Positions 16,588 through 39,380 of a stretch of DNA of 64,000 nt are shown here, in pieces. The position numbers and the translations under genes were made by a program. Each line of letters starts with the position of its first letter. Positions within the stretch are counted from its first letter, which is position 1. The notes beneath the pieces are model-generated. The model saw only the letters and a program-made list of their open reading frames with translations, made no database searches and had not been told where the DNA came from. The stretch comes from Mobula birostris (Eukaryota), in the NCBI RefSeq assembly GCF_030028105.1, contig NC_092376.1:42084935-42148934 (forward strand). The letters are read 5' to 3'.

Positions 16588-17851
16588 ACATGAAAGTTTA
16601 CATTTATGCCACAAAATTTAAAATTTATATCTGCGGCAGTTCATCTGTTGAATTCTTCCAGATGCACCACTCACTCCCTTGCTGTCTACATCTTGTTTCT
16701 CACACTTCTCTCCACACACCCCACCTTCTCTCAAGGCTTCCTTTCCTGGGTTCACAATATGGATGACAACAGAGACCATACAACCCTCTCCACCAATCTG
16801 TCAAAGAACTTCACTGGGCACCCAACTGTTCAGATTCTGATGGAACAGCATTTGTCCCATTAGTTCAGAATGAGATCCTGGGGTGCAGGGTGCAAGCTGT
16901 TATGCAGCTAAAGCCCAGATGTGTGCTAAGTATGCAGCCAGAACTAGGGTAGGGATTCAGAGCACCAGTGCCAGGAACATGGGTAGATCTGTAGTTAGAG
17001 CCAGAGAATTTCTATTCCCAAAGCTGAACCGGGAAATTAAAAAAGTAAAAGCACATTTGGGTATTAACAGGAATAATACCCAATCCCAAAAACAATCCAG
17101 CAGTAAAACAAAGGATGCTGAACTACCACAAGTTTTGTTTATTTCCCACAGAACAGTCCACTATTTCTCCAGTCTTTCAGCAGTTTAAAAGAAAGACAGC
17201 ACCAACTTTTACACTTAGCTGCATCTCAGCCAATCCCAATGCCATAATGGATTCGAACCAGTTGCATTATTTTTAAACACTAGGAAAGCCAATCTACTGC
17301 CTAGAAAATTTCAGTGTGACGTCAATATAACTATCACACTACCTCTTACTGAAAAAAAATTGTTTTCTATCTTGTATTCTACTTATTAATCCCAAACATC
17401 AAATCAAAATAATTTCCATCTTTATCAGAAAGACTAAAGTACACATTTACCTGGTTCTGCACCCATTAAAACCCACTTATAGCAGGCAGGAACCCTCAAC
17501 AGATTTCCGTGTCCAGACTTGCATCATTCACTCATCCTTCACTAATCACTTCATCACTAGCCTTATTTTCCTCCCTGCTTTTACATCTCTTCATGGTCCC
17601 AATCTACTCTAACTCCAACACTTCCATCTATATCAAACCACATGCCTGAAAGGGATATACGAACACATGAGATCACAGCCAACTGGTTTCTCCACCCAAC
17701 ATGGTCCTTTAAGGAATGGCCACCCAATTCAGCAAACTTTCACATAGACTGCCAAGTAACTCATGACTTAATGTCAAATCTCTGATCAAACTTCTGTAAT
17801 GTTGAAATGTCTTCCAACGTTGAAATAAAAACACTGAATTTTTAATACTCA

Positions 17852-17965
<114 letters not shown>

Positions 17966-18877
17966 CTAAACAGCAAGGTAGTTTTTTGTTATTTCTGAAG
18001 ATCTATGAAGCAAAATTCAATTAAGGTCCATACAGAAGACAGCTTATACAAATAAAATACATTGCTCAAATCTTTTCATCTGCTTTTCTACATTTAATGG
18101 GGGGGGGGGGCAAAAGATGCTTCTCCATTGTACAGATGAACTAATGTATAACTGTGCTGTAGAATTGGCTTGTAAACAGAATGAAGAGGAAGCAGGGAAT
18201 AAGGAAAGAATTCCGGTTTGCGAGGTTTGTTTACGGGGTGGGGGGGGGGGGAAGAGAGGAGGGAGGGACAGGGGACGATCATCACTAACAGCAAGATTCA
18301 AGAATGCAGCAGCGCCCAGTATTGGTGGAACCCCAGAGCTTTCAGCTGCAGAACTCACAGGATTGGTGGTAAGGAGAATCAAACTTGCAATAAGCAAACA
18401 GCAGCTGCAAATTGAGCAATCCCGCTTAGTAACCCTCAAGGTTTATTTTGTGCAATTAGCCACATGGCCAATATATACATCACAAACCAAGTAAGAATTA
18501 TTCATCTCAGAACCACGTCTCTGGAGACTGGGCTTATCACTGCCATTTGCAATATCTATTAATTTTTAGGAATTGTGACAATTAAAAAGTTGAAATGTGA
18601 ACATTTAGAAAAAAAGGCACAATCTAAATGGAATTTTCAGCACAAAATCATTTAAAGATCATTAACAAGTAAACTCAAACCTCAGAGCAGCATCTGATAC
18701 TTATTAAACTCAGACCTCAAAAACAATTAAGTACATTAATATTTCTTCAAAAATATTTTAAATGCCCTTTTTTCAGGTATAACTCCCAATTAAAAATGTA
18801 GAATTTCTGCACTGAACTAGCTTATTTTACCAGACCCTACCAAGATTCCACTTAACAGCAATAAAGACAATAAATAC

Positions 18878-38359: not shown

Positions 38360-39380
38360 TACTGGGAGTCCCGTCTTTTGACCGCTCAAAGTAGAGAAGG
38401 AGCACTGGAAACGGCAGTAGGAACATCGAAGTCCACAGTAAATGACAGAAGGAGCGCACCGCCTCACGAAATACCCTCTCGTCTATCTCGATGGACACTT
38501 TCTGCCCCATCCATGGCAAAGTCTGTAGGTCCCACATCGGTTTCATCCGTGTGAACTTAACACCGATTTGGAAGGAGGTATCACGGCTCCCGAGGGACGA
38601 CCTGAAGAAGAGCATGTGTATTGTCAGCCAATGAATCACAAGCCCGCATTTAATACTTACAGATGTCACTGAAATTGCTTACACTTGCTCTCTGTTGTTT
38701 ATCTCTTTTATGAATGCATGTGCTTGAGGAATGCGTTTGCAGTGCATGGGGCGGGTGTTCAGCAGCACCACGGCCTCAGCGTCGTCCACACTGTCCCCGC
38801 CCATAATTGGAGCCGAGTGAGCGGATGAAACATGGCGCTGGACGGATGGAAATACTAATGACAGTCGGAAAACTCGCTTCCATTTGTACCATGGTAGGTG
38901 TCCTGCGGGGTTCACTCGCTTCTGGTTCTACAACAGCGGCGGCTTTGTCAGCGGTTTCCCGGTGTCGAGCAGGCCCCGGGGCCCAGCCGGCTGCTTGGCT
39001 GCCAGGTCACTGCTTCACTCCCAGTCCAGGGCTCCACTCCGGCCTGATGGCTGCTGACGGGCCAGGGAAGCAAACGAGATAGGCATAGTCATTAAGATAC
39101 ATGGAGGAAGGAGGCCTAGCCCCTTGCAGCCGGGGTCCTCAGTCCCGCAGTCTCTCCCCGTGTTCGATCTGGCCTTCCCGGAGCCAGGCGCTGCAGGAGT
39201 TTCAACCAAGGCCGGGAGGCAGGTGCAATGAACGGGCAGCCTAGCGCATCGTGTGTGGACCTTACCCGCCAATAGTCTGGCTGCAACCCTCGTGTTGGAA
39301 ACTTGGCTGTTCTGTATTCAGTTTTATAAAGCTTGGGGACGCTTAGAAAGTACAAAACGTATTTCCCCGGGTCTGCCAAA
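38360..39380 (+). promoter_or_regulatory. usp12: usp12 CpG-island promoter
   Basis: High CpG density; GC boxes at 38748 and 38795; CArG-consensus CCATAATTGG at 38801-38810; YY1-like AACATGGCG at 38829-38837. Confidence 0.75.
38846..38893 (+). CDS. usp12: Ubiquitin carboxyl-terminal hydrolase 12, coding exon 1 (exon 2 not found in window)
   Basis: MEILMTVGKLASICTM|GTAGGT matches the USP12 N-terminus (human MEILMTVSKFASICTM); 48-nt phase-0 exon; divergent from rpl21 as in human. Confidence 0.93.

Follow-up and report, generated by a model that had tools for sequence, protein, structure and literature searches.

In this work we have analysed a 64 kb stretch of the Mobula birostris genome (G000:C8:42084935-42148934, called the window below, in whose numbering positions are given), inside which exon 1 of usp12 lies. 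This exon probably carries the cartilaginous-fish copy of a conserved TISU-type upstream open reading frame (uORF), likely to be a translational damper. The core element is already known, since it has been published for USP12 and USPL in mammals, and for this reason the copy in this genome mainly extends the element's age. Beyond the published element we describe a uORF in usp46 of two fishes and a possible ladder of N-terminal starts.

Start codons in usp12 exon 1

Spliced contigs cover exon 1 over 38663..38893 on the plus strand, the strand of all features in this paragraph, and the loose contig end matches exon 2. The earlier note on this DNA had listed four ATGs, at 38825, 38832, 38846 and 38858, with their frames and a TAATG stop/start, and we confirmed all of these in the sequence. 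The first is in frame with USP12 in a weak context (cggATGa) and adds MKHGAGR (38825..38845). The second, in the strong context aacATGg, lies in the TISU/YY1-like element AAACATGGCGCT (38828..38839; 9/12 bases agree with the TISU consensus) and opens the overlapping uORF MALDGWKY* (38832..38858) in the +1 frame, which stops at TAA 38856-38858. The annotated USP12 start (cggATGg, C at -3) and the exon-1 coding part MEILMTVGKLASICTM occupy 38846..38893. The fourth is the Met5 ATG (38858..38861; ctaATGa, weak context), whose first A is the last A of the TAA. The census of four ATGs and the TAA thus stood, but two features had been overlooked. One is TGA 38859-38861, a further stop of the uORF frame, which directly follows the TAA and is formed with the Met5 ATG; the other is an in-frame ATG in strong context, Met16 (38891..38893; accATG, with G from exon 2), which is the final codon of exon 1. 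Intron 1, about 32 kb long, opens with the GT donor at 38894..38895. An ATTGG at 38806..38810, which we take to be a reversed CCAAT box, does not occur in the other four exon-1 sequences described below. The clustering of ATGs was rejected as evidence: four ATGs within 36 nt are found in 26 cases on the plus strand and 32 on the minus strand of the whole window, and so such a cluster alone carries no meaning. TAATG is found 86 times on the plus strand of the window, and ATGGCG 12 times in the window against 9.5 expected.

Identity and neighbourhood of the gene

The assignment of the gene to usp12 is borne out by its place in a tree and by its RPL21 neighbour. Exon 2 lies ~32 kb downstream of exon 1, beyond the window end (G000:C8:42155831), and the whale shark protein matches the exons of the gene in 252 of the 257 aligned residues. 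An exon structure of usp12 type was found at three genome loci, on C8 (the gene studied here), C12 and C4. In a 25-row tree, the C8 gene forms one clade with tetrapod USP12 and teleost usp12a, with moderate support (85/89), the C12 gene clusters with proteins of USPL/usp12b type (93/94), and the C4 gene clusters with USP46 (100/99), while hagfish falls outside. Some 21 kb upstream of usp12, an exon of RPL21 occupies roughly 17846-17983 of the minus strand; in human, RPL21 is presumably likewise the divergent upstream neighbour of USP12. A second copy of RPL21, intronless and with an open frame of 159 codons, lies at G000:C20:32673989-32674291 and is possibly an intact retrocopy. Two amphibian protein models, P0042 and P0046, have IF3 domains fused to USP12 exon 2, which suggests read-through from MTIF3 or a close neighbourhood of the two genes. 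Intron 1 (38,894 onwards; seen over 40000-64000) is full of degraded retroelement fragments, recognised in translations, which we take to be LINE-like and GIY-YIG-like and presumably typical of elasmobranchs.

Transcription of the exon

The upstream ATG (uATG) at 38832 is transcribed, as the earlier note had supposed: spliced contigs include it in 4/4 runs, and in each of these a contig spans 38825-38893 and runs on into exon 2. The runs come from two studies and two organisms (A and B); their RNA status was guessed by the tool, and their RNA nature rests on the spliced contigs. The left ends of the contigs (38663, 38768, 38797 and 38804) lie 28-169 nt upstream of the uATG, and such ends do not mark the start site. 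Organism B shows zero differences from the window over 38804-38894. Exon 1 of usp46 had zero contig cover in 4/4 runs, which is no evidence on its expression either way; for usp46 the runs yielded just USPL contigs that cross-match and a single piece of intron. In two of the four runs we also observed a spliced antisense contig on the minus strand (38460-38759), which diverges from the usp12 promoter and has an intron of 81 nt (38602-38682) with GT-AG ends on that strand.

Conservation of the uORF in the USP12/USPL/USP46 family

We compared five exon-1 DNAs, namely usp12, USPL and usp46 of this genome and USPL and usp46 of a second fish (fish-like metagenome contigs). A TISU-like uATG stands in the same frame, 26-29 nt ahead of the MTV ATG, in 5/5 of them, so the conservation of the uATG frame, on which the earlier note depended, holds across three paralogs. 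This is more than chance would give, the rough expectation for an RnnATGG so framed in a 40-nt stretch being 0.03-0.05 per gene. In USPL of this genome (C12, L002:1490-1566) the uATG is at -26 from Met5, and the uORF, MAADGWKY, ends in TGATG. The 30 nt around this uATG are identical in spliced contigs of 4/4 organisms, and the fish-like metagenome contig L031 has the same uORF as USPL of this genome. From the uATG to Met5, ~30 nt of this USPL agree fully with those of a distant fish (L031), even at the third codon positions of MEIL. In usp46 (L009:2495-2526; G000:C4:61162495-61162526) the TISU-like uATG lies at -29 in the same frame, and its uORF has nine codons; the gene of this genome has no MEIL ATG, and the uORF ends in TAATG at the gene's own start. 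In the second fish-like usp46 contig (L032) the uATG is kept at -29, and the uORF stops at -8 with no overlap. Scored by the TISU consensus as given by Hezroni 2017 (PMC5577775), usp12 of this genome is the weakest of the five (9/12) and the paralogs reach 10-11/12.

Protein records point the same way, indirectly, as their codons are unseen. All 21 listed proteins with N-terminal read-through ahead of MEIL have, at the place of the uATG, the residue pair expected from uATG-G (D-G, Y-G or H-G), from primates to teleosts, and the one of them with an extra codon preserves the frame. The in-frame ATG 38825, by which usp12 here differs from the uORF region described in PMC5577775, is shared with the whale shark only (MKHGGGR); bony vertebrates have no Met there and read W-V-E-D-G-A-G-R or similar. 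A conserved uORF peptide was ruled out, the usp46 peptides being different, and GWKY is kept because the overlap with the main frame forces it. A scan for the exon-1 pattern gave 2 loci among the metagenome contigs, 0 in viral sequences and 0 in prokaryote genomes.

Judged from these sequences, the uORF is real and old and common to the USP12/USPL/USP46 family; as it is found in usp46 of two fishes, it should predate the paralog split. Its occurrence in all three genes predicts translational damping of all three enzymes. Hezroni 2017 compared USP46, but the available text of that paper (PMC5577775) names just USPL and USP12 as carriers of the uORF, whereas we find it in usp46 of two fishes.

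The uORF as a probable translational damper

What could such a uORF do? According to Hezroni 2017 (PMC5577775), the uORF of USP12 and USPL is highly conserved, associated with a TISU and overlaps the main AUG, and in human USP12 it is translated more than the main ORF. Its descendant in JPX is repressive, since mutation of the AUG raises luciferase; this mutation was made in JPX and not in USP12 (PMC5577775). The element in our window is the same orthologous, TISU-like, out-of-frame AUG overlapping the main AUG. The section of that paper on the uORF, in the text available, makes no mention of the overlap of the stop with Met5 or of Met16. In mouse, the log2 TE of Usp12 is -2.66, the lowest of 43 table rows with a median of -0.14, these rows forming a section of a table ranked by fold change, and that of Usp46 is -1.29 (PMC6547434). 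The suggestion of the earlier note that the uORF represses USP12 is therefore likely to be right, given the published translation and repression in human, mouse and JPX, and by analogy USP12 would be repressed in Mobula birostris too. We propose that ATG 38832, being strong, captures most scanning ribosomes, which would then translate eight codons, pass over the main ATG and terminate. Because of this, full-length USP12 would be made solely by ribosomes leaking past ATG 38832, and Met5 and Met16 would yield minor leak-through products.

Overlapping uORFs are common: in NIH3T3 cells 926 plus 1365 of 4755 uORF genes have one (PMC6547434). As a class, they work through leaky scanning and not through reinitiation, according to the review PMC10275272. 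The usp12 arrangement resembles this class in having a strong out-of-frame uAUG closely preceding a weaker main AUG, and the class and mouse Usp12 are both DENR-insensitive (PMC10275272, PMC6547434). It differs in that its overlap is just 13 nt and in that conserved in-frame starts stand at the stop and 33 nt after it. Further sources added nothing to this picture: there were no USP12 uORF matches in the available text of the Hezroni 2017 supplement, no match in the supplement of a zebrafish 5'UTR preprint, and none in 12/17 supplementary files of a paper on mitotic uORFs; a catalogue of human sORFs has just a USP46-DT row and is uninformative for an ORF of eight codons, and in the available part of the Trips-Viz paper USP12 appears just as a GC plot.

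Could ribosomes reach Met16?

A rather different consequence of the same arrangement would be that the uORF and the weak contexts of the MEIL and MTV starts send some ribosomes to Met16, whether these leak through or reinitiate 33 nt beyond the uORF stop, giving a myristoylated, membrane-anchored MG(A/T/I)NAS isoform such as is predicted for invertebrate homologues. We consider this unlikely as an account of the region, although several features of the protein are consistent with it. The myristoylation consensus is Met-Gly-x-x-x-Ser/Thr after the start. Met16 is present in 74/74 listed exon-1 proteins, and Met-Gly-x-x-x-Ser (Met16-Gly17, Ser21) in all 67 listed vertebrate proteins that are spliced to exon 2. 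Immediately ahead of Met16, 65 of the 74 listed proteins have Thr, 8 have Asn and 1 has Ile, all with A-initial codons, and in 5/5 DNAs the Met16 context has A at -3 and G at +4. Among the matches listed, an MG start, mostly MGANASQLEKEIG, is found in 61/87 mostly invertebrate homologues, and 60/67 homologues with the catalytic Cys at 29-37 begin with MG; the distance from Met16 to Cys48 is 33. Of the distant representatives (50% library) with Cys at 29-36, again among the matches listed, 20/22 begin with MG and 19 fit MGxxx[ST]. The MG start of these non-vertebrate homologues corresponds to Met16, and named species that have it are a green alga, an ichthyosporean, a euglenid, a jakobid and, separately, C. 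elegans. These counts come from the best 120 of 1611, the best 120 of 848 and the best 150 of 31,943 matches, with repeat ids and the 18 long Trichinella models P0282-P0299 left out.

Against this, the Met16 region may be conserved as protein, and 83 further motif-bearing library proteins, fungal-looking, include just 4 that begin with MG (among the matches listed). In this genome the Met16 product would read MGINAS..., and Ile at position 3 probably makes a poorer NMT substrate. A human myristoylome (PMC4200515) lists neither USP12 nor USP46 in six supplementary files, an absence that low abundance could explain. Denr knockdown was without effect on the bulk TE of mouse Usp12 (PMC6547434), and YFP fusions of the plant proteins UBP3/4, with the tag end unspecified in the text available, were cytosolic and nuclear. 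A literature search, mostly outside subscription journals, found no paper on initiation at Met5 or Met16 or on myristoylation of USP12 or USP46, and the accessible parts of PMC11624278, PMC7503480, PMC8262740, PMC10690280 and PMC9653390 hold nothing on USP12 isoforms.

The N-termini of the family form steps: hagfish and USP46 begin with MTV, USP12 and USPL add MEIL, and this genome and the whale shark add MKHG; the claim that USP46 starts at the equivalent of Met5 is upheld by the USP46 sequences. Amphioxus has a short extension, MHCVVN, ahead of the same MG. The simplest history that we infer from these sequences is that ATGs further upstream in exon 1 were recruited one after another. Met16 would be the ancestral start; MTV would have been added in early vertebrates, when the uORF ended at or just before the MTV start; and the MEIL ATG would have arisen later, inside the uORF, which would make the uORF older than MEIL. 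As MTV and MEIL would be later extensions in weak contexts, ribosomes may still reach Met16. That the uORF and deliberately weak MEIL/MTV contexts share ribosomes out among these starts, and that USP12, USPL and USP46 all use Met16 as the bottom rung of the ladder and so make a hidden N-myristoylated MG-x-NAS isoform in the same register as the invertebrate and protist enzymes, is a speculative idea, to which we give a small chance. In several invertebrate proteins (P0324, P0334, P0335, P0308 and P0353) short Cys-containing extensions precede the MG start or take its place; they echo the Cys of the vertebrate ASIC and might be an alternative palmitoyl anchor.

The localisation of USP12 is of interest here. 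The earlier note had named MEIL as a motif on which WDR20-dependent localisation of USP12 relies, and we likewise take MEIL to be the motif needed for WDR20-dependent shuttling. The more general part of the claim stands, as this shuttling, according to a review, requires a motif at the N-terminus of USP12, and USP12 localisation is termed controversial in a review. N-terminally tagged constructs would miss a Met16 isoform, which could explain the dispute. If such a lipid-anchored isoform is made, it would matter to studies of receptor recycling and of Wnt and androgen-receptor signalling.

Possible conservation of a DNA element

Is it the DNA rather than its translation that is conserved? On this reading the element is YY1/TISU promoter DNA, and translation of the uORF is a by-product, tolerated since it is quickly closed. 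Conservation is maximal on AAnATGGCG while the uORF peptide varies between paralogs, the usp12 promoter is rich in CpG and has a spliced transcript diverging from it, and in JPX mutation of the AUG lowered RNA levels (PMC5577775). However, the same mutation raised protein despite the lower RNA (PMC5577775), and the uORF frame was kept through two independent length changes of 3 nt (in usp46 and in P0080), which would happen by chance about 1 in 9 times. It is thus improbable that the conserved thing is promoter DNA with translation as a mere by-product; moreover, roles as a DNA element and in translation are not mutually exclusive.

The overlap of the uORF stop with Met5

It is very unlikely that ribosomes terminating on the uORF reinitiate at the overlapping Met5 and so replace MEIL-USP12 by an isoform that resembles USP46 and localises differently, as had been proposed. 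A TAATG or TGATG overlap does occur in 4/5 sequences, and USP46 and hagfish start at the Met5 equivalent. But Leu directly precedes Met5 in 62/62 listed proteins that have an upstream residue, 4/6 Leu codons before ATG create the overlapping stop automatically, and Met-Thr (ATG-ACN) always yields TGA, the second stop in the uORF frame. Coding for Leu-Met-Thr thus supplies stops in the uORF frame, and this is the main reason for the overlap with Met5. The sole case in which coding does not force the overlap is usp46: in this genome the codon ahead of the start does not code for protein, the uORF is one codon longer and the overlap is present, but in the second fish, with the uORF stop at -8, it is absent, giving one of two. 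The context of Met5 is also weak, with a pyrimidine at -3 and A at +4 in 5/5 DNAs. RNA structure as an aid to reinitiation was ruled out, the 5' exon folding no better than shuffles (z 0.19).

The 18S-complementary motif of TURBS has a UGGGA core and sits in a structured element; TGGGA is absent within 110 nt upstream in 4/5 sequences, usp12 of this genome included. Reinitiation at UAAUG is known in viruses, where this coupling requires TURBS, but after short uORFs the reinitiation start sits downstream of the stop (PMC10275272), and longer spacing from stop to start helps reinitiation (PMC6547434). Denr knockdown gave a TE change of 0.16 for mouse Usp12 (adjusted p 0.77) and of -0.13 for Usp46 (p 0.87; PMC6547434). 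The usp12 pentamer shares its geometry with the viral UAAUG/AUGA cases (influenza B BM2 and caliciviruses), but in these viruses a long ORF comes first and TURBS tethers the 40S subunit, whereas the usp12 uORF has eight codons and no TURBS-like motif, and coding explains its overlap. The notion of a purpose-built switch is thus not supported, in view of the sufficiency of Leu-Met-Thr coding, the fish usp46 with no overlap, the missing TURBS-like motif and the insensitivity to Denr. The overlap of stop and start is probably incidental to protein coding, and a Met5 isoform produced through plain leaky scanning, as the damper model predicts, is plausible.
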